Source: a virus (lineage: Duplodnaviria; Heunggongvirae; Uroviricota; Caudoviricetes). Taken from it: a DNA stretch of 7,686 bases. Of the stretch, positions 1 through 7,633 are shown piece by piece. The stretch's first letter is position 1. Each line of letters begins with the position of its first letter. The notes beneath the pieces were generated by a model. It searched no databases. It saw only the letters and a list, made by a program, of their open reading frames with translations, and had not been told where the DNA came from. The DNA lies in IMG/VR virus record IMGVR_UViG_2740892258_000007; one strand, given 5' to 3'. A program made the position numbers and the translations under genes.

Positions 1-1
1 G

Positions 2-85
2 GCATTTGAAGAGATGTATGGCTCCCAGCTGGAGCTGATATTTCGTTTTATCGATCATGCGCTGGCAATAGGCGTACTGGCGTAA
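2..85 (+). CDS. 3' end of an upstream gene (partial, C-terminal ~27 codons, ...SQLELIFRFIDHALAIGVLA-stop)
   Basis: Open frame running in from the window edge to TAA at 83-85; 13 bp before the SD/ATG of the next gene. No family recognised. Confidence 0.3.
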   Translation, partial: AFEEMYGSQLELIFRFIDHALAIGVLA

Positions 86-98
86 GTGGAGAACGAGC

Positions 99-851
99 AT
101 GAACCTTGAAGCCTTACCAAAATATTACTCCCCAAAATCTCCAAAATTGAGCGATGACGCACCGGCGACAGGCTCAGGTGGTTTAACGATTACGGATGTG
201 ATGGCTGCGCAGGGGATGGTGCAGTCGAAAGCACCGCTTGGGTTTGCCTTATTCCTGGCAAAAGTTGGTGTTCAGGATCCTCAGTTTGCGATTGAAGGTC
301 TGCTCAATTACGCGATGGCAATGGATAACCCGACATTGAACAAATTGAGTGAAGAAACCCGGTTACAGATCATCCCTTACCTTGTGAGTTTTGCCTTTGC
401 TGATTATTCCAGGTCTGCGGCAAGTAAGGCTCGCTGTGAGCATTGTGCTGGTACTGGATTTCATAGTGTATTGCGCGAAGTGGTGAAACACTCCAGAAGC
501 GGGGAATCTGTTATCAAGGAAGAGTGGGTGAAGGAATTATGTCAGCATTGCCATGGTAAGGGAGAAGTCAGCACGGCTTGCAGAGGGTGTAAGGGTAAAG
601 GCATTGTCCTGGATGAAAAAAGAACCCGGCTTCATGGCGCGCCTGTTTATAAGATTTGTGGGCGTTGCAATGGAAACCGGTTTAGTCGTTTACCGACCAC
701 ACTGGCACGACGTCATGTCCAGAAGCTGGTACCAGACCTGACTGATTATCAGTGGTACAAAGGATATGCAGACGTCATTGATAAACTGGTAACAAAGTGC
801 TGGCAGGAAGAAGCATTCGCTGAAGCACAATTGAGAAAGGTGACGAGATAA
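99..851 (+). CDS. Q: Late-gene antitermination protein Q (250 aa, QuuQ-like as recalled) with four CxxCxGxG zinc-finger repeats
   Basis: GGAG 8 nt upstream of ATG 99. Four repeats CEHCAGTG, CQHCHGKG, CRGCKGKG, CGRCNGNR. Sits immediately upstream of a promoter plus intrinsic terminator (883-989) followed by morons and lysis genes, the canonical Q/pR'/tR' layout. N-terminus MNLEALPKYYSPKSPKLSDD matches my recollection of E. coli prophage Q homologs; not search-verified. Confidence 0.65.
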   Translation: MNLEALPKYYSPKSPKLSDDAPATGSGGLTITDVMAAQGMVQSKAPLGFALFLAKVGVQDPQFAIEGLLNYAMAMDNPTLNKLSEETRLQIIPYLVSFAFADYSRSAASKARCEHCAGTGFHSVLREVVKHSRSGESVIKEEWVKELCQHCHGKGEVSTACRGCKGKGIVLDEKRTRLHGAPVYKICGRCNGNRFSRLPTTLARRHVQKLVPDLTDYQWYKGYADVIDKLVTKCWQEEAFAEAQLRKVTR

Positions 852-882
852 GTGATTTTCACCGAAGATGGCGACATGATGC

Positions 883-911
883 TTGCATTTCTCAAAAAAT
901 ATGGATAAGAT
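883..911 (+). promoter_or_regulatory. pR'-like late promoter candidate (-35 TTGCAT 883-888, 17-bp spacer, -10 TAAGAT 906-911)
   Basis: Sigma70-like hexamers with 17-bp spacing, 30 bp after the Q stop and about 45 bp before a strong intrinsic terminator, as expected for pR' with its Q-utilisation region. Confidence 0.4.
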
Positions 912-957
912 TTTCCCAACGATGGGCTTTGTATGTCTACCGTTGATGAGTCCAAGA

Positions 958-989
958 ACCCGCCGCCGAGCGGGTTAAATTATTTTTTC
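958..989 (+). terminator. tR'-like intrinsic terminator
   Basis: Stem aacccgc (958-964) / gcgggtt (971-977), loop cgccga, followed by aaattatttttt. Confidence 0.6.
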
Positions 990-1005
990 TTACACGGGGA
1001 TATGG

Positions 1006-1536
1006 ATGTTATACCGAGATCTTTTGCCTATTTTCTCAGAAAGACCCATATTTAAAGCTCCTGAGGCTGAAAGAATACTTCGTGAGCAATATTCTATCGC
1101 CGCCCCCACTCCTGTAATTCAGGAGATTTATTATGGATTGGCAGGTTATGACAGATTTCAGGAGCTTTATGGGGATCTTAATATTGACCAAATCGAATGG
1201 AAATTGATTGAACTTCCCACTAAAAATTTTTTAACTATCGGGGATAATGCTACTTACCCTGATTTTTTGCATGAGGTCGTTGAAGATTTCACAACCCGTA
1301 AAGGCGATGTATTTATGGATGATGAAATAAAAGCGCATTGGTGTAATTTTGGCACATGGTGTGAACCTCCATTTTTTATAGATCGAGCTTTGCTGAAAAG
1401 TAATACAACAGGGCTTCATTTAATGGAAGGGCATACAAGAGTTGGAACCCTGTTAGGGGCAGTTAAGTATAACTTCGTTAAGCTTGCTAATACTCATAAA
1501 ATTTATTATGCGCAAGCAAAAGAATGTATTAAATAA
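1006..1536 (+). CDS. Hypothetical 176-aa protein, AT-rich moron; possible ParB/Srx-like fold (weak)
   Basis: GGGGA 5 nt before ATG 1006; uninterrupted ORF; clearly more AT-rich than the flanking Q and methyltransferase genes; followed by an intrinsic terminator. Segment PPFFID...TGLHLMEGHTRVGTLLGAV loosely resembles the strand-DGHxR-helix core of ParB/sulfiredoxin domains. Confidence 0.55.
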   Translation: MLYRDLLPIFSERPIFKAPEAERILREQYSIAAPTPVIQEIYYGLAGYDRFQELYGDLNIDQIEWKLIELPTKNFLTIGDNATYPDFLHEVVEDFTTRKGDVFMDDEIKAHWCNFGTWCEPPFFIDRALLKSNTTGLHLMEGHTRVGTLLGAVKYNFVKLANTHKIYYAQAKECIK

Positions 1537-1572
1537 GTTGAGTGAAATTACTGTTTTTTTTTAACAATACTT

Positions 1573-1595
1573 ACCGCGTTCTCGCGGTTTTTTTA
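1573..1595 (+). terminator. Intrinsic terminator after the 176-aa ORF
   Basis: accgcg (1573-1578) / cgcggt (1583-1588), loop ttct, then a run of 7 T. Confidence 0.6.
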
Positions 1596-1717
1596 TAAAT
1601 TAAACATTGGTGCAGTACGGTAAACACGCTGGTGGTCGTGAATACTGACTTTTTATCTTGCTGGCTTTTTAGACAAGAGTTATTGGTATGTCATGTTAAC
1701 CATGAAGGTAAAAAGAC

Positions 1718-1912
1718 ATGCTAAAACAGCAAGATATGACAGAAACGGCGAAAGTTGTTTTTAATGAATTAAACGGCAAACCGGCAACAGTCGGGGAGAT
1801 AGCACAAAACACATACCTTTCACGCGAACGCTGTCAGTTAATACTGACCCAGCTGGTTATGGCGGGGCTGGCAGATTACCAGTTCGGCTGTTACAGACGC
1901 CTTCAGCAATGA
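1718..1912 (+). CDS. Small winged-helix DNA-binding protein, PapI/FaeA-like (64 aa)
   Basis: Pattern ...NELNGKPATVGEIAQNTYLSRERCQLILTQLVMAGLADY aligns by eye with the PapI core (...[32 protein letters not shown]...). Size typical of the family. AAGG about 10 nt upstream of the ATG. Confidence 0.45.
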   Translation: MLKQQDMTETAKVVFNELNGKPATVGEIAQNTYLSRERCQLILTQLVMAGLADYQFGCYRRLQQ

Positions 1913-2061
1913 AGGGCTTTTAATTTGTGAAAATGGGCGGCTGGTGGGTGTTGGTAGCACCTGCCAGCCATTCGCTCATGCTTACTGGTCACAAGCGAAC
2001 CATGGCCCACTGCTTTAGCGCAAAAGCAGAGTGAGCCTACCAGAGTTACGCTTACTGATCC

Positions 2062-3123
2062 ATGAAAAACACTGTAAAAATAAACAGTATTGATTTAATC
2101 AACGCTGATTGCCTGCATTTTATTCAGTCCCTGCCTGATGATTCCATTGACCTGATTGTTACCGATCCGCCTTACTTCAAGGTGAAACCCAACGGTTGGG
2201 ACAATCAGTGGAAAGGGGACGAAGATTACCTTAAGTGGCTGGACCACTGTCTGGCCCAGTTCTGGCGGGTGTTGAAACCTGCCGGAAGCCTTTACCTGTT
2301 CTGTGGGCATCGCCTGGCATCTGATATTGAGATCATGATGCGTGAACGTTTCAACGTGCTTAACCATATCATCTGGGCGAAGCCGTCCGGACGTTGGAAT
2401 GGGTGTAATAAAGAAAGTCTGCGCGCATATTTTCCTGCCACAGAGCGCGTTCTGTTTGCTGAACATTACCGGGGGCCATATCGCGGCAAAAGTGACGGCT
2501 ATGTGGCAAAAGAAAGGGAACTCAAACAGCACATAATGGCACCGCTGATATCGTATTTCAGGGATGCTCGTGCCGAACTGGGTATAACGGCAAAACAAAT
2601 TGCCGAAGCCACAGGTAAGAAAAATATGGTTTCCCACTGGTTTGGTGCCAGTCAGTGGCAGTTGCCGAATGAGGCTGACTACCGGAAGTTACAGGCACTG
2701 TTTTCCCGTATAGCGGCAGAGAAGTTTCAGGAACAACAACTGGAACAACCACACCACCAGTTGGTGGCATCTTATGATTCACTGAATCGCAAATATTCTG
2801 AATTGCTGGATGAGTTTAAATCTCTCCGGCGCTATTTCTCCGTATCAGTCTCCGTGCCTTATACCGATGTCTGGATGCATAAACCCGTTCAGTTCTACCC
2901 GGGTAAACATCCGTGTGAGAAACCGGCGGATATGCTCAGGCAAATAATCAATGCCAGTAGTCGACCCGGCGATCTGGTTGCTGATTTCTTTATGGGATCC
3001 GGTTCCACAATAAAAGCAGCAATGGCGCTGGGGCGTCGGGCGTTAGGTGTTGAGCTTGAGACAGAGCGGTTTAATCAGACCATCCAGGAAATCAGTATGT
3101 TATCAGCAAATACAATTTTGTGA
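2062..3123 (+). CDS. Orphan DNA methyltransferase, beta-class N6-adenine/N4-cytosine family (DPPY motif, probably N6-adenine), 353 aa
   Basis: Motif IV DPPY near the N-terminus (LIVTDPPYF) and AdoMet motif I near the C-terminus (DFFMGSGST), the circular permutation typical of beta-class enzymes. No restriction endonuclease partner in the window. Weak SD. Confidence 0.85.
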   Translation: MKNTVKINSIDLINADCLHFIQSLPDDSIDLIVTDPPYFKVKPNGWDNQWKGDEDYLKWLDHCLAQFWRVLKPAGSLYLFCGHRLASDIEIMMRERFNVLNHIIWAKPSGRWNGCNKESLRAYFPATERVLFAEHYRGPYRGKSDGYVAKERELKQHIMAPLISYFRDARAELGITAKQIAEATGKKNMVSHWFGASQWQLPNEADYRKLQALFSRIAAEKFQEQQLEQPHHQLVASYDSLNRKYSELLDEFKSLRRYFSVSVSVPYTDVWMHKPVQFYPGKHPCEKPADMLRQIINASSRPGDLVADFFMGSGSTIKAAMALGRRALGVELETERFNQTIQEISMLSANTIL

Positions 3124-3365
3124 ATTAATTCAATTATTGGTGGGATGTCTGTGCCGTATAATGATTACAGATACAGTGTATCCTGCAATGCAGCAGGGCT
3201 GATGTGGTGGGTTGTACATAGCCTGCAAAGGATTGGCTTCATTAATTCATCGTTGATACAAGCGAGTCACGGTTGACCACGCCAACGGCTCATCGGTAAA
3301 AATCCGACACCGTGTCTTCTTAACTCACTTATTGTTTCCACCCATGTTTTTGGATACCTGCTGTA

Positions 3366-3404
3366 GCTGTCAGATTAGCGCGATAATCTGACAGCTTTTT
3401 TTTT
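3366..3404 (+). terminator. Strong intrinsic terminator
   Basis: 11-bp perfect stem gctgtcagatt (3366-3376) / aatctgacagc (3385-3395), loop agcgcgat, followed by 9 T. Confidence 0.65.
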
Positions 3405-3565
3405 ACAACGAATCCTTCTGATCTGCTTTTGCGGGGCTTTTTTGTATCCGCTCCATGCCCGGCGTATAAGCGGAGGTTGGTCAGTTTTCTAAAAATTGAA
3501 ATACCTCACAATTCAGCCAGTTAATGGTTGTTTGTCTGGCGAAGAGTTTGTAAATAAAAAAACGC

Positions 3566-3720
3566 ATGGTGAATCCCCCTAAGCGGCGGGGCGAATCAGC
3601 AGTCAGTTCTGGGATAATCGCGGGTTCGTATGCTGATGCCGGACTCACCGGGAGGCACCCGGCACCATGCATCATGGTCATCCCCTTGTATGATACCCCT
3701 CTCCGGAGGGGTATTTTTTG
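3566..3720 (+). ncRNA. Candidate structured small RNA (~155 nt) ending at an intrinsic terminator
   Basis: GC-rich block with no credible ORF. Long-range closing stem gcatggtg (3564-3571) / caccatgc (3665-3672); internal hairpin ccggg-aggca-cccgg; terminator with 9-bp stem atacccctc (3693-3701) / gaggggtat (3706-3714) plus T5. Weak promoter candidate upstream (-35 TTGTCT 3532-3537, -10 TAAAAA 3555-3560). Confidence 0.3.
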
Positions 3721-3721
3721 G

Positions 3722-3790
3722 ATAAAAAAGCCCGCGCTGGGAGGCACGGGCGGCAAGGAATAAAACGTGAAGAAATTTTCACAGGCGCAT
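3722..3790 (-). ncRNA. Candidate short minus-strand transcript (~60 nt) with its own intrinsic terminator
   Basis: On the minus strand: -35 TTGCAA, 18-bp spacer, -10 TATTAT (reverse complement of about 3786-3820), then hairpin gtgaa/ttcac (3776-3791), then terminator hairpin gcccg...cgggc (3730-3754) followed by 6 U (forward A-run 3724-3729). It lies back-to-back with the plus-strand terminator at 3693-3720. Confidence 0.25.
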
Positions 3791-3988
3791 AATAATCCGA
3801 TGTTGCCAGATTTTGCAACTGCATCATCTGGTTATTATGTGAGCTGGAAAATCAGATTCTGTATGGACTGAAGCCATGCTGTTATTTAGGGCCAAAGAGC
3901 TGGCTTTTTCCCGCCTTCTCTCCAGTAACGATTAATGAGAAAAGAATGAAATGCTTTTCCTGGGGAGGAGGGCAGTAGAAAAAAGAAC

Positions 3989-4043
3989 CCGCCAGCAAAA
4001 ATATGGGGGATGAACAGCTTTTGCTACTCAGGTTGCTGGCGGG
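3989..4043. repeat. 11-bp perfect inverted repeat with an internal competing repeat (possible alternative hairpins)
   Basis: cccgccagcaa (3989-3999) pairs with ttgctggcggg (4033-4043); the loop contains ttttgct (4017-4023), which can alternatively pair with agcaaaa (3995-4001). Confidence 0.4.
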
Positions 4044-4151
4044 TATGGTTCTTCATGAAATAAGAATGTTACGCGGTATTTTTAATGAAAATGATAATTA
4101 TTGTCAATTGGTTGTGCGTATTTTTTCATACATGACTGGTAAAGGTGATTC

Positions 4152-4187
4152 AGGCCATCAGAGTTTTGCTGATGGCCTTTTTTCTTT
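4152..4187 (+). terminator. Intrinsic terminator about 30 nt upstream of the pinholin start
   Basis: 10-bp stem aggccatcag (4152-4161) / ctgatggcct (4169-4178), loop agttttg, T-run 4178-4183. Confidence 0.55.
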
Positions 4188-4216
4188 CCGGTAGCACAGG
4201 TCTGTTGGGGCGGGAT

Positions 4217-4432
4217 ATGTATCAGATGGAAAAAATATCAACAGGCATTGCCTACGGCACCTCCGCAGGCAGTGCTGGCTACTGGTTTTTACAATGGCTT
4301 GATCAGGTTAGTCCGTCTCAGTGGGCTGCGATTGGTGTACTGGGAAGTCTGGTTCTGGGCTTTCTGACTTATCTGACGAATCTGTACTTCAAAATCAGAG
4401 AAGACAGAAGAAAGGCTGCGAGAGGAGAGTAA
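4217..4432 (+). CDS. S: Pinholin, phage 21 S21 family (71 aa, dual-start MYQMEK)
   Basis: Translation [71 protein letters not shown] is near-identical to S21 as I recall it. Two transmembrane domains, charged C-terminus, Met1/Met4 dual start. The longer listed ORF 4145-4432 is an upstream extension across the terminator hairpin and is not the real start. Confidence 0.85.
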
Positions 4433-4436
4433 TATA

Positions 4437-4781
4437 ATGGTCCAAAACTATGAAATGATTGTGAAAGGGATCCGCAATTTTGAGAATAAAGTTACGGTAA
4501 CTTTAGCATTACAGGACAAAGAACGCTTTGACGGTGAAATTTTTGACCTGGACATCTCGCTGGACCGTGTTGAAGGTGCCGCGCTGGAGTTTTATGAGGC
4601 AGCAGCCAGAAGGAGCATCAGACAGGTCTTCCTGGATGTTGCTGCCGGGTTATGTGGAGGGGATGAGCAGTCGCCGGAAAAGCGCCCCATAATTTTAGAG
4701 GCGCAGAGTGTGTGGATAACCTACAAAGGAAAACTGCCGGGAAGAATTACTGGTTCACTGAAGACTCCGCCGAAATGGTAA
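4437..4781 (+). CDS. orfA, hypothetical 114-aa acidic soluble protein in the slot normally occupied by the endolysin
   Basis: SD GAGGAGAG inside the 3' end of S, 7 nt before ATG 4437, so translationally coupled to the pinholin. A second copy (5356-5612) differs at about 12 nt with only 3 amino-acid changes, indicating purifying selection. No family recognised. Confidence 0.6.
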   Translation: MVQNYEMIVKGIRNFENKVTVTLALQDKERFDGEIFDLDISLDRVEGAALEFYEAAARRSIRQVFLDVAAGLCGGDEQSPEKRPIILEAQSVWITYKGKLPGRITGSLKTPPKW

Positions 4782-5019
4782 TTTCACCAGCATATTTTTC
4801 CTCCAGTAATACCGCCAGCCACTTGAAAGAATTTTGTTGTTGCTGGGACCATTTGGGATTGATTGATTCAAGCTGGAGCGATGCCAGTGTTGGTTGCATT
4901 TGTTCCTTGGGAATTGAGAATGCCAGATATGAAAATGCGACAGCAAGGGCATTTACATCATCCCGAAGCCTGGAAATGCAGTCGAGCAACTCCTGTAGAG
5001 AAATGGTGCTATTGTCCAT
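4747..5019 (-). CDS. orfB, hypothetical 90-aa protein, convergent with and 3'-overlapping orfA by 35 bp
   Basis: Minus-strand ATG at 5019-5017 preceded by AGAGAGGA with 7-nt spacing; an intact paralogue with the same RBS at 5578-5850. Helical-looking N-terminus (MDNSTISLQELLDCISRLRDDVNAL). The ORF track's 92-aa version starts at an upstream TTG; ATG is preferred. Confidence 0.45.
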   Translation of the reverse strand: MDNSTISLQELLDCISRLRDDVNALAVAFSYLAFSIPKEQMQPTLASLQLESINPKWSQQQQNSFKWLAVLLEEKYAGEITISAESSVNQ

Positions 5020-5124
5020 AAACAATCCTCTCTATTGTATTTAACTATTCCTTGCCTGATTCAACAGGCCGGGACAGATAAACATATCCAGGGTTCAGAA
5101 ACCGATAAATCCTGATAAATATCC

Positions 5125-5355
5125 ATGAACGCAAAAATCAGATACAGCCTGTCGGCTACTGTACTAGTGCTGATTGGTGCAGGCGCGTCTGCTCCTCAAA
5201 TACTTGACCAGTTTCTGGACGAAAAAGAAGGTAACCACACAACGGCATACCGTGATGGTTCCGGCATCTGGACCATCTGTCGGGGTGCCACGATGGTGGA
5301 TGGAAAACCCGTTTTTCCCGGTATGAAACTGTCGAAGGAAAAATGCGACCAGGTC
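5125..5355 (+). pseudogene. Endolysin 5' fragment R' (first 77 codons: SAR domain and E-D-T catalytic region), then out of frame into the orfA copy
   Basis: Codons 1-77 match the R N-terminus (5 amino-acid differences); after KCDQV the frame runs into orfA-derived sequence, giving a 55-aa junk tail and a stop at 5521-5523. Confidence 0.75.
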
Positions 5356-5612
5356 GCTTTGACGGTGAAATTTTTGACCTGGACATCTCGCTGGACCGTG
5401 TTGAAGGTGCTGCGCTGGAGTTTTATGAGGCAGCGGCCAGAAGGAGCATCAGACAGGTCTTCCTGGATGTCGCTGCCGGGTTATGTGAAGGGGATGAGCA
5501 GTCGCCGGAAAAGCGCCCCGTAATTTTAGAGGCGCAGAATGTATGGATAACCTACAAAGGAAAGCTACCGGGAAGGATTACTGGTTCCCTGAAGACTCCG
5601 CCGAAATGGTAG
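5343..5612 (+). CDS. orfA second copy, lacking the first 29 codons; possible re-initiation at a fortuitous ATG 5343 (AAGGA 5 nt upstream, within the R' fragment)
   Basis: In-frame homolog of orfA residues 30-114 with 3 amino-acid changes (G to E, I to V, S to N) and about 8 synonymous changes. Whether it is expressed is unknown. Confidence 0.35.
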   Translation: MRPGRFDGEIFDLDISLDRVEGAALEFYEAAARRSIRQVFLDVAAGLCEGDEQSPEKRPVILEAQNVWITYKGKLPGRITGSLKTPPKW

Positions 5613-6186
5613 TTTTGCCAGCATAATTTTCTTCCAGCAATGCCGCCAGCCACTTGAAAGAATTTTGTTGTTCCTGGGACCATTTGGGGTTGCGTGATTC
5701 AAAATGAATGGATGCCAGCGTTGGCAGCATTTGCTCCCTGGGAATTGATAAGGCCAGATGTGAAAATGCAACAGTGAGGGCATTTACATCATCCCGAAGC
5801 CTGGAAATGCAGTCGAGCAACTCCTGTAGAGAAATGGTGCTATTGTCCATAAATAATCCTCTTGATTGTCTTTACCTTTTCCCCGCCTGATTCAACAGGC
5901 CGGGACAGATAAACATATCCAGGGTTCAGAAACCGATAAATCCTGATAAATATCCATGAACGCAAAAATCAAATACGGCCTGTCAGCTGCAGTTCTGGCG
6001 CTGATTGGAGCAGGCGCATCAGCTCCTCAGATACTTGACCAGTTTCTGGATGAAAAAGAGGGTAACCACACTACGGCATACCGCGATGGTTCCGGCAACT
6101 GGACCATCTGTCGGGGGGCCACGATGGTGGATGGAAAACCCGTTTTTCCCGGTATGAAACTGTCGAAGGAAAAATGCGACCAGGTC
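5356..6186. repeat. Tandem duplication, copy 2 (831 bp)
   Basis: See copy 1; ends inside the intact endolysin gene at codon 77. Confidence 0.85.
5578..5850 (-). CDS. orfB second copy (90 aa), about 15 amino-acid differences from copy 1, concentrated in the middle and C-terminal half
   Basis: Intact ORF with conserved RBS AGAGGA and ATG at 5850-5848; N-terminal 25 residues identical to copy 1. Confidence 0.45.
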   Translation of the reverse strand: MDNSTISLQELLDCISRLRDDVNALTVAFSHLALSIPREQMLPTLASIHFESRNPKWSQEQQNSFKWLAALLEENYAGKTTISAESSGNQ

Positions 6187-6489
6187 AACGCCATTGAGCG
6201 TGATAAGGCGCTGGCATGGGTGGAGAAAAACATCAAAGTGCCATTGAGCGAACCCCAGAAAGCGGGGATCGCGTCATTCTGTCCGTACAACATTGGTCCC
6301 GGTAAGTGTTTCCCGTCGACGTTTTATAAACGAATTAATGCAGGTGATCGCAGGGGAGCGTGTGAGGCGATTCGCTGGTGGATTAAGGACGGTGGCAGAG
6401 ACTGCCGTATTCGTTCAAACAACTGCTACGGTCAGGTATCCCGTCGTGACCAGGAGAGCGCGCTGGCGTGCTGGGGTATCGACAGATAA
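5956..6489 (+). CDS. R: SAR endolysin (phage lysozyme with N-terminal signal-anchor-release domain), 177 aa
   Basis: Weakly hydrophobic Gly/Ala-rich N-terminus LSAAVLALIGAGASAP; catalytic triad spacing E-x8-D-x5-T in EGNHTTAYRDGSGNWT. Pinholin plus SAR endolysin is the established phage 21-type pairing. No SD before the ATG. Confidence 0.85.
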   Translation: MNAKIKYGLSAAVLALIGAGASAPQILDQFLDEKEGNHTTAYRDGSGNWTICRGATMVDGKPVFPGMKLSKEKCDQVNAIERDKALAWVEKNIKVPLSEPQKAGIASFCPYNIGPGKCFPSTFYKRINAGDRRGACEAIRWWIKDGGRDCRIRSNNCYGQVSRRDQESALACWGIDR

Positions 6490-6581
6490 GCAGAATATTT
6501 TGCTGAAAAATAAGGCATGGCCACGCGGGCGGATAACATGAAATCCTGCGAAGTGGCGAAACGTAAGTGAATAAAAGTAAA

Positions 6582-6620
6582 AACCCCGTTTGTTGGCACC
6601 AAGCGGGGTTTTGTGTTTCC
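6582..6620 (+). terminator. Intrinsic terminator downstream of the endolysin
   Basis: Stem aaccccg (6582-6588) / cggggtt (6604-6610) with possible inner extension, followed by ttttgtgttt; A-run on the 5' side so it may act bidirectionally. Confidence 0.5.
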
Positions 6621-6648
6621 TGACTCCGGAAAAGTCAAAGGAGAAAGT

Positions 6649-6786
6649 GTGTTTGATTTTAGCAAACTGATTCGGGAGATTCGAGTGATGGCTGAAAAAT
6701 TATCCACCTGGAAGTTCATTCTTATCTGGCTGGTGTTTGTGATTATGGCCTCTGGTTATTTCATCGGTCAGATACGCTGGTGGTGA
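6649..6786 (+). CDS. Small single-pass membrane protein (45 aa from GTG 6649, or 32 aa from ATG 6688), stop 1 nt before the Rz start
   Basis: AGGAG (6638-6642) 6 nt before GTG 6649; hydrophobic core [20 protein letters not shown]; TGA 6784-6786 then ATG 6788 of Rz, a coupled arrangement. Below the ORF-track size cutoff. Confidence 0.35.
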
Positions 6787-6787
6787 A

Positions 6788-6976
6788 ATGAACCGCGTAC
6801 TGTGCGTGGTCATCATTGCCCTGCTGGTGGCCTGTGGTGCGCTTAGTCTGGGGCTGAATCATTACCGTGATAACGCCATTACCTACAAAGCCCAGCGCGA
6901 CAAAAATGTCAGAGAACTGAAGCTGGCGAACGCGGCAATTACTGACATGCAGATGCGTCAGCGTGGAATGAAATAA
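6788..6976 (+). pseudogene. Rz: Truncated i-spanin Rz (62 codons; lambda-type Rz is about 150 aa); no embedded Rz1
   Basis: [59 protein letters not shown] closely matches the lambda Rz N-terminus as recalled, then diverges to GMK-stop. Downstream frames show no Rz or Rz1-like continuation. Confidence 0.7.
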
Positions 6977-7104
6977 ACCGGTCTATCCGTCCATTACCCT
7001 TTTAGCTGCGCTGTATCGTCGCCGTATTCCCGCATTAACCATGACCGTAGCCCGACGGGGAATTCCTTCTGCGTGAGTGTGCGGGAATAATTAAAAACGA
7101 TGCA

Positions 7105-7149
7105 CACCGGGTTTTTACCGCGTTAATGATTCGCGGATTTATCCCGGTG
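7105..7149. repeat. Nested palindrome (outer caccggg/cccggtg, inner ccgcg/cgcgg)
   Basis: caccggg (7105-7111) ... ccgcg (7118-7122) ttaatgatt cgcgg (7132-7136) ... cccggtg (7143-7149). A further 9-bp inverted repeat tattcccgc (7025-7033) / gcgggaata (7081-7089) lies upstream. Confidence 0.4.
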
Positions 7150-7306
7150 CGATGGTGGAAGAAACCGGAAGCTGTATTACAGAAAGTGCTACTACTGTAT
7201 CCCGATGCGATGTATGTAATGTGAGTCAGATAATGGCACAGGATGTGGTGATGTGGCAGTCTGGAACACAGGATATATTGTCAGAATAAGACCCGTAGGA
7301 ATAAAA

Positions 7307-7633
7307 ATGAAAAGACGCCTTTTACTACTTTTTCTGTTATCTGTCCTAGCAGTGGGATGCTCGCAGCAAAAAGCTGATGAGCCCCGGCAATTAGTGACGG
7401 TGTATCCACGATATCCGGAATATGCTGCAGCAAATTATATCAAGGGGCTGGTTGAGGTTAAGTTCGATATTGGTGCTGATGGGACTGTGACACGGATCGT
7501 TTTTCTCCGCTCAGAGCCTCATAATTTGTTTCGTGATGAAGTGGTGAAGGCCATGGCGAAATGGCGATTTGAAAAGAATCGTCCCTGTCAGGGAGTGAAG
7601 CGACAATTTATCTTTACGCCGTCACGTCCCTGA
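7307..7633 (+). CDS. Lipoprotein with a TonB C-terminal-like domain (108 aa)
   Basis: AGGA about 7 nt before ATG 7307; signal peptide MKRRLLLLFLLSVLAVGC with a lipobox-like LAVGC and Ser at +2; mature part YPEYAAANYIKGLVEVKFDIGADGTVTRIVFLRSEPHNLFRDEVVKAMAKWRFE aligns position by position with the E. coli TonB C-terminal domain ([54 protein letters not shown]). The listed ORF start at 7253 is an upstream extension. Confidence 0.7.
   Translation: MKRRLLLLFLLSVLAVGCSQQKADEPRQLVTVYPRYPEYAAANYIKGLVEVKFDIGADGTVTRIVFLRSEPHNLFRDEVVKAMAKWRFEKNRPCQGVKRQFIFTPSRP

Follow-up and report, generated by a model that had tools for sequence, protein, structure and literature searches.

A prophage-borne lipoprotein with an isolated TonB C-terminal domain, a possible TonB-box decoy

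Why would a lambdoid prophage encode a small lipoprotein that consists of little more than the C-terminal domain of TonB? The question is raised by a 7,686-nt stretch of viral DNA (Duplodnaviria; Heunggongvirae; Uroviricota; Caudoviricetes; IMG/VR record IMGVR_UViG_2740892258_000007), here called the window, which is the late region of such a prophage and contains, at positions 7307-7633, the gene for this protein of 108 amino acids (aa), hereafter the lipoprotein gene. We describe the domain, its conservation and its genomic setting, and then consider what the protein might do, tentatively favouring a role as a decoy for TonB boxes.

A lipoprotein signal followed by a TonB C-terminal domain

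The gene and the parts of its product are as follows.

7297-7300, plus strand: Shine-Dalgarno-like AGGA, 6 nt 5′ of the ATG (from the sequence; a ribosome binding site is annotated at the equivalent place in phage 21)
7307-7633, plus strand: coding sequence of the 108-aa lipoprotein, stop included, with the ATG at 7307 and the stop codon at 7631-7633 (from the list of open reading frames (ORFs) and the sequence)
7307-7360, plus strand: lipoprotein signal peptide, residues 1-17, with the lipobox L-A-V-G-C (sequence pattern)
7361-7387, plus strand: short flexible tether, residues 19-27 (SQQKADEPR), modeled with lower confidence than the domain and placed by the TonB alignment
7373-7615, plus strand: TonB C-terminal domain, residues 23-103, corresponding to E. 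coli TonB 150-230 (Pfam, TIGR, PDB alignment and structural model)

The protein begins MKRRLLLLFLLSVLAVG-C18-SQQ, with a basic n-region, a hydrophobic core, the lipobox LAVG|C18 and Ser at position +2; the segment before the cysteine, MKRR followed by LLLLFLLSVLAVG, satisfies together with Cys18 the rule [LVI][ASTVI][GAS]C. The lipobox was called by reading this pattern from the sequence, with the first ca. 35 residues as the criterion, and not with a dedicated predictor. Its cysteine is invariant in the 9/9 aligned lipoprotein relatives, in line with the prediction that the mature protein begins with Cys18 in acylated form. At +2 the alleles have Ser, Thr or Ala. Since E. coli lipoproteins without Asp at +2 are sorted by the Lol system to the outer membrane, and no allele has Asp at this position, the protein is predicted to reside in the outer membrane and to face the periplasm.

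The initial annotation had described a lipoprotein signal followed by an essentially isolated TonB C-terminal domain, and this description is borne out by the lipobox and by three further lines of evidence. Pfam TonB_C (PF03544), the profile that the annotation had named, matches residues 33-99 (E=7e-13, 49.2 bits against a cutoff of 24.6), and TIGR01352 matches residues 34-104 with 47.4 bits against a cutoff of 27.1. A phmmer search against the PDB aligned residues 23-103 without gaps to E. coli TonB 150-230 (E ca. 1e-14), so that residue i of the lipoprotein corresponds to TonB residue i+127; tether residues 23-27 are already within this alignment, as TonB 150-154. Finally, an AlphaFold2 (AF2) model built on 18 relatives has a mean predicted local distance difference test score (pLDDT) of 87.5, exceeding 95 for residues 31-100, and presents the element order strand-helix-strand-strand-helix-strand. 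In a Foldseek search, the model superposed on TonB from the BtuB:TonB complex (2gsk_B) with a root-mean-square deviation (rmsd) of 1.0 Å and a template modeling (TM) score of 0.92, and on TonB from the FhuA:TonB complex (2grx_C) with an rmsd of 0.9 Å; across 1u07, 2gsk_B and 2grx_C the rmsd was 0.9-1.5 Å and the TM score, by target, 0.90-0.92. All significant PDB matches were TonB-type domains, TolA domains being marginal matches only, and the model had no significant match in a viral structure library.

Overall, the lipoprotein shares ca. 38-41% identity with the E. coli TonB C-domain (residues ca. 150-239; 1u07, 1xx3, 2gsk and 2grx), with no gaps and a fold within ca. 1 Å, and keeps the YP motif, the core aromatics and the last, TonB-box-pairing strand. 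TonB residues Y163, P164, F180, F202, W213, Y215 and F230 correspond to Y36, P37, F53, F75, W86, F88 and F103, and these are invariant or conservatively replaced among 13 sequences of the lipoprotein clade. Twelve TonB positions (P161, Y163, P164, A167, G174, V176, G186, P198, F202, W213, P220 and F230) are invariant in the lipoprotein clade and the canonical TonBs taken together, and aromatics are kept in both at positions 180 and 215. In the co-crystals with FhuA and BtuB, it is the last TonB strand that pairs with the TonB box (PMC9249621), and this strand is retained in the lipoprotein (KRQFIFT vs. VVNILFK in TonB). The domain is therefore complete, and not part of a fold.

Unlike TonB, the lipoprotein begins with a cleavable lipoprotein signal. 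It has neither the proline-rich spacer of TonB nor the transmembrane helix at its N-terminus and, without them, is not coupled to ExbB-ExbD; its predicted lipid anchor is at the opposite membrane. It also ends four residues earlier, and Gly234, present in 9/9 canonical TonBs, is variable in the lipoprotein clade. Scores with the NCBIfam TonB equivalogs NF008080-NF008084 are 45-69 bits, against cutoffs of 265-448, and cover only the last ca. 70-85 profile positions.

Conservation, expression and gene order

The exact protein occurs in five phages: phage 21, ev017, Perceval and two ECOR-derived phages. The copy in phage 21, CPT_21_73, is annotated as "TonB C-terminal domain protein", that in ev017 as [quoted passage not shown], and that in the LF82 prophage Perceval as "TonB fragment"; the RefSeq entry for the exact protein (WP_000830178.1, "TonB family protein") is found on at least 1000 contigs. 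The gene, which is not mentioned in the genome announcement of phage 21, is thus already annotated and listed as a moron, and hence is not new as an object. A 72%-identical allele occurs in Stx1a phages and in JLK-2012, and a 41%-identical homolog in a Klebsiella phage. The distribution of the gene extends from a classical laboratory phage to the phage 21-like prophages of ca. 30% of the complete E. coli genomes (1617/5426), including ST131 and other extraintestinal pathogenic E. coli (ExPEC). Its neighbors include iss and sitABCD, which are virulence markers. Of these 1617 genomes, 1612 have the gene at full length; when the best place in each genome is counted, 1225 genomes show at least 95% identity and 392 show 60-80%. 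Between the phage 21 allele and that of the Stx phages and JLK-2012, the ratio of nonsynonymous to synonymous substitution rates (dN/dS) is 0.12, with dS saturated at 1.5. The gene is real and functional, conserved and under purifying selection.

Published transcriptomes of strain LF82 include the identical gene LF82_160/PERCE_65 ("TonB fragment"), a moron transcribed 8-fold over the prophage background in LB (PMC9928086). Its log2 values are 5.0-6.6 in all conditions, compared with ca. 2.3-4.3 for the flanking lysis and terminase genes (PMC9928086, supplementary tables), and it stays flat where bor is induced ca. 2^7-fold (PMC9928086). The lipoprotein gene therefore behaves as a true moron, transcribed apart from the flanking late genes in the lysogen, and its standing as a prophage moron, already proposed from the sequence, is strengthened by these data and by the signature of selection. 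A consensus scan found no plus-strand promoter for the gene, whose G+C content (ca. 45%) is slightly under that of its surroundings.

The window contains Q, a DNA methylase gene, a P21-type holin gene, a lysozyme gene and a truncated Rz. Positions 1-5354 are 99.98% identical (blastn) to a prophage of E. coli IHE3034, from which the window departs by an 832-bp tandem duplication, a divergent stretch at ca. 6486-6845, without matches in the blastn comparison with that prophage, and a 746-bp deletion. The features between the lysis genes and the lipoprotein gene are the following.

6788-6976, plus strand: truncated Rz (i-spanin) remnant of 62 aa, matching only positions 1-31 of the 126 of the Pfam Phage_lysis profile (Rz of phage 21 has 153 aa)
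6963-6965: junction of the 746-bp deletion relative to phage 21 and IHE3034, with GTG microhomology (blastn)
7005-7180: conserved lambdoid non-coding block, a generic module boundary (from its occurrence in phage records)
7152-7289, plus strand: small upstream ORF of 45 aa, equivalent to CPT_21_72 in the annotation of phage 21, and unlikely to encode a conserved protein

The gene order shared by phage 21, IHE3034 and an ST131 prophage integrated at icd is lysozyme, Rz/Rz1, bor/iss (on the minus strand), a small ORF, the TonB-domain gene, one or two small ORFs and cos/terminase. The deletion removes the 3′ end of Rz, all of Rz1 and bor/iss, leaving this prophage copy without a spanin pair, and its junction was found in 0/5426 complete E. 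coli genomes. The lipoprotein gene had been placed initially where lambda carries bor, an appearance that is due to this deletion; in intact relatives bor/iss lies between Rz and the lipoprotein gene, which is a second moron beside it. The two have in common that they encode outer-membrane lipoproteins (as predicted here), that they are morons in a gap of the late region and that their signal peptides are similar (…GC[AS]QQ); they differ in strand and in their regulation in LF82. A Bor-like protein was discarded as an identification, because only the signal peptides are alike and the mature part is without similarity.

The frame of the small upstream ORF closes after ca. 21 codons in the JLK-2012/Stx allele, as read from the alignment. 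The non-coding block at 7005-7180 is 93% identical between alleles whose coding sequences are at 72% amino acid identity, and it occurs in 432 phage records, including lambda, only 15 of which contain the TonB-like gene. It was considered, as a stretch of 110-170 bp, as a regulatory RNA specific for the gene, and rejected as generic lambdoid sequence with a fold z-score of -1.8 and no Rfam match there. The TonB-domain gene is one of several alternative cargoes in the gap between bor and cos.

A putative TonB-box decoy and its alternatives

We consider it possible, although somewhat short of probable, that the protein is a TonB C-domain without a motor, anchored in the outer membrane, which blocks TonB boxes by unproductive occupancy and so excludes TonB-dependent entry. 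In favor of this reading are the complete domain with its retained pairing strand, the lipobox without Asp at +2, the maintenance and autonomous transcription of the gene, and the presence of a homolog in the equivalent slot of a separate clade of Klebsiella prophages. The C-domain would be the sole folded part of a protein lipid-anchored to the outer membrane, facing the periplasm and with no link to ExbB-ExbD, and a tether of nine residues would have to suffice for it to reach its targets. It would bind exposed TonB boxes through β-strand addition, as TonB does, those of transporters and perhaps also those on group B colicins as they enter, in competition with host TonB. Because a motor-less lipoprotein cannot pull, this occupancy would be non-productive, and the outcome would be a partial, dominant-negative dampening of TonB-dependent entry by phages such as T1 and phi80 and by colicins, at the price of some siderophore or vitamin B12 uptake. 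Exclusion would thus be aimed at other phages and group B colicins.

This decoy would have both natural and artificial counterparts. Cor and Llp are lipoproteins of the inner leaflet of the outer membrane that inactivate FhuA from the periplasm and need acylation to do so (bioRxiv 10.64898/2026.03.26.714494). Like Cor (from phi80, N15, HK022 and mEp167) and Llp (from T5), the product of the lipoprotein gene is a small phage-encoded lipoprotein with a predicted location in the inner leaflet of the outer membrane; unlike them, it has an unrelated fold, for which Foldseek returned only TonB and TolA domains, and its predicted target is the generic TonB box instead of the periplasmic surface of FhuA. 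As to artificial counterparts, a passage of PMC9841981 summarising Howard, Herrmann, Stratilo and Braun (2001) reports that the import of iron through TonB-dependent transporters is inhibited when a periplasmic TonB domain is over-expressed, and the same source, for Tuckman and Osburne (1992), that a TonB-box pentapeptide lowers both killing by colicins and infection by phi80. The laboratory fragments are motor-uncoupled TonB C-domains in the periplasm that act as competitive inhibitors of TonB-dependent uptake, which is the mechanism proposed here for the lipoprotein; they are soluble and over-expressed, whereas the lipoprotein is natural, predicted to be lipid-anchored, moderately expressed and diverged on its helix-1 surface.

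Several observations weigh against a decoy. First, the surface of helix 1, beside the TonB-box site, differs from that of TonB. Arg166 (R in 8/9 canonical TonBs) is replaced by Tyr in 11/13 sequences of the lipoprotein clade (Tyr39 here), and Leu170 (L in 9/9 canonical TonBs) by Asn in 10/13 (Asn43 here); Arg158 and Gln160 are variable, position 160 being Tyr in the 21 allele and Leu in the Stx allele. Since this surface differs and is yet conserved across the clade in its own way, the substitutions could mean a different partner. We take Arg166 to contact the FhuA plug in 2GRX, and its loss would be in keeping with a domain that binds without having to transmit force, or with one that binds another ligand. 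Q160L and Q160K are presumably the classical suppressors of TonB-box mutations and, if so, position 160 is tolerant of change.

Second, the native receptor of phage 21, which carries the gene, is LamB, which is not TonB-dependent, and any exclusion would therefore be heterotypic, unlike that by Cor and Llp. Third, ExPEC lineages, ST131 and IHE3034 among them, commonly carry the gene; they rely on TonB-dependent siderophore uptake, so that a strong constitutive block would be costly for them. Expression in the LF82 lysogen is only moderate according to the published data, which is compatible with partial dampening at most. Fourth, none of the defence models in PADLOC-DB matched at E≤0.1 (0 families), and a literature search found no study on the function of the lipoprotein.

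Lastly, the family extends beyond phages. An exhaustive HMMER search of 1.84 billion representatives yielded 2795 matches at E≤1e-3, and among the best were many short proteins (105-135 aa) in which one TonB C-domain comes after either a lipobox or a standard signal peptide. In a rough neighbor-joining tree, the phage proteins group in one clade with enterobacterial lipoproteins (P0037, P0039-P0042), apart from the C-domains of canonical enterobacterial TonBs. The chromosomal lipoproteins of Raoultella, Shimwellia and Erwinia and those of Klebsiella prophages (P0037, P0039-P0042, L003, L005-L008) share with the phage 21-type protein the lipobox, the short tether, the TonB C-domain and the signatures YPxYAxAN, SEPxHLFD and KWRFE, but are only 42-49% identical to it. 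The relatives from Raoultella, Shimwellia and Erwinia are in ordinary, non-prophage loci: in Raoultella, beside EAL/GAF and GNAT genes at one locus and beside lacZ-lacI and a DUF1440 gene at the other; in Shimwellia, beside yccA-type genes; and in Erwinia, beside araBA. These chromosomal genes argue for a cellular role and against a family that is specifically a phage weapon. A separate clade of Klebsiella prophages has the 41%-identical homolog in the equivalent slot between the lysis genes and terminase. Another lipoprotein, P0139 (152 aa, YPAQAQALQIEGRVRVKYDV…), falls inside the canonical TonB clade, which suggests that lipid-anchored TonB C-domains have arisen independently more than once. 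As a separate observation, the DUF1440 (YagU-like) membrane protein gene that adjoins the R. ornithinolytica homolog (L007 6738-7301) also occurs a few kb 5′ of the Klebsiella-phage homolog (L003 1232-1858), which may be coincidence.

The chromosomal homologs are the first argument for a physiological modulator, in which enterobacterial lipidated C-domains would cap or park TonB boxes as a post-translational brake or quality control on the transporters, and not act against phages or colicins, one of them having been taken by phages as a fitness moron alongside the TonB-independent importer SitABCD of 21-type prophages. A second argument comes from Fur-box-like sequences (14-15/19) that immediately precede the start codon in each of two independent lineages: one is the group of Raoultella planticola, Shimwellia and the Klebsiella prophages, the other R. 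ornithinolytica. Their palindromic core, TGATAAT-N4-ATTATCA, is kept even where the flanks have diverged, and was located as follows.

L005 and L006, ca. 5965-5990: TGATAAT-N4-ATTATCA palindrome
L007, 5972-5990: the same palindrome
L003, ca. 4925-4950: the same palindrome, found also in L029 and L034 (Klebsiella prophages)

With consensus matching, which is the only basis of the Fur assignment, the background was 0.15 sites per kb for at least 14/19, and the sitA promoter, used as a positive control, matched at 17/19. These boxes suggest a possible iron-responsive control of the family outside E. coli. The window allele, by contrast with its relatives, is without this operator: a Fur box was rejected for it, the best match being 11/19 and no better than shuffles. 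The transcript in LF82 was likewise unresponsive to the tested conditions, and both points speak against a modulator.

Linkage to metal uptake would be a third argument. In phage 21 (L037 7468-10917) and in the ST131 icd prophage (L040 2844-6293), the Fe/Mn importer genes sitABCD are in one element with iss/bor and the TonB-domain lipoprotein gene, so that the chromosomal sit/iss cluster of ExPEC corresponds to a phage 21-type prophage, and sitA is in 7/7 phage records with the 21-type allele. However, an obligatory linkage was rejected, since the two are separable: sitA is absent from eight phage records with the 72% allele, ca. 19 sit-carrying phage records are without the lipoprotein gene, and no sit operon is close to the copy that IHE3034 carries at the ompT site. 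The linkage is suggestive, and explicable by common descent. Weighing these points, we regard a modulator as unlikely.

A second alternative retains the TonB fold but assigns it another ligand (peptidoglycan, an outer-membrane protein or a host factor), bound through the helix-1 surface with Tyr166 and Asn170, in an envelope or virulence moron like Bor/Iss. The clade-wide, systematic substitutions in helix 1 are in its favor, as are the neighborhood of iss/bor in virulence-associated prophages and the precedent of the TonB-type C-domain of FusB, solved with ferredoxin (9hi3). We nevertheless consider it rather improbable, because the core features for TonB-box strand pairing are all retained, no candidate partner was identified and the expression pattern is unlike that of bor. 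It is also conceivable that the domain pairs with the C-domain of host TonB and titrates it at the outer membrane, producing by sequestration a dominant-negative phenotype that would look like that of a decoy, but the sequence analysis lends this no support and we hold it to be highly improbable.

A dead fragment of a captured tonB, as the annotations in Perceval and in the CP-933N-derived copy would have it, or a lysis accessory, as would follow from the assignment to phrog_1267 in PHROGs ("Rz-like spanin", category lysis), can be practically discounted: the former was ruled out because of the purifying selection, the lipobox in every allele, the nearly universal full length and the autonomous transcription, and the latter because the protein is not similar to Rz or Rz1 of phage 21 (BLASTP E=15 and no alignment, respectively), which leaves the label unsupported, phage 21 having its own complete spanin pair and the chromosomal homologs not being beside lysis genes.

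A broader interpretation, combining the decoy with the cellular relatives, is that lipid-anchored TonB C-domains would form an unrecognised class of outer-membrane "TonB-box caps", acting as Fur-controlled brakes in Klebsiella, Raoultella and Shimwellia, one of which would have been co-opted by lambdoid phages; lysogens of 21-type phages could then partly shut the TonB-dependent gates against competing phages, group B colicins and microcins, their metals still being supplied by SitABCD. We think this distinctly doubtful; if true, it would represent molecular mimicry of the domain of a host energy transducer as a broad, receptor-independent exclusion device. More generally, should the protein bind TonB boxes, a single small gene product would curb entry by way of all TonB-dependent transporters simultaneously, and be a clear case of a phage turning a duplicate of part of a host machine into a competitive inhibitor. 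There would be consequences for phage therapy, many therapeutic and temperate phages using FhuA, FepA, BtuB or CirA, for competition through colicins and microcins, for the entry of siderophore-antibiotic conjugates (cefiderocol, for example) and for the way iron is acquired during infection. Should it not bind them, the conserved surface with Tyr166 and Asn170 would point to another partner for a widespread family of enterobacterial lipoproteins.

Other features of the window

The lysis region contains an imperfect tandem duplication of 832 bp (4524-5355 / 5355-6186, 92% identity), which could be due to recombination between two prophages or be an assembly artefact. It gives rise to a hybrid ORF (5125-5523), in which the N-terminus of lysozyme is fused to YdfR/DUF1327-like sequence, and to a second copy of the DUF1327 gene and of its antisense ORF.

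Between Q and the methylase gene there is an ORF of 176 aa (1006-1536, plus strand) with no Pfam match, annotated as "hypothetical protein" in IHE3034. The non-coding sequence between the methylase and holin genes (3535-3723, plus strand) matches STnc100, a gammaproteobacterial small RNA family of Rfam (114.5 bits against a gathering threshold of 47). No tRNA genes are present in the window; phage 21 has two 5′ of its holin gene. Just 5′ of the P21-type holin gene, GAAAATGATAATTATTGTC at 4087-4105 (plus strand) matches the Fur-box consensus at 16/19 positions, and this Fur-like site is also present in the IHE3034 prophage (L001 7321).

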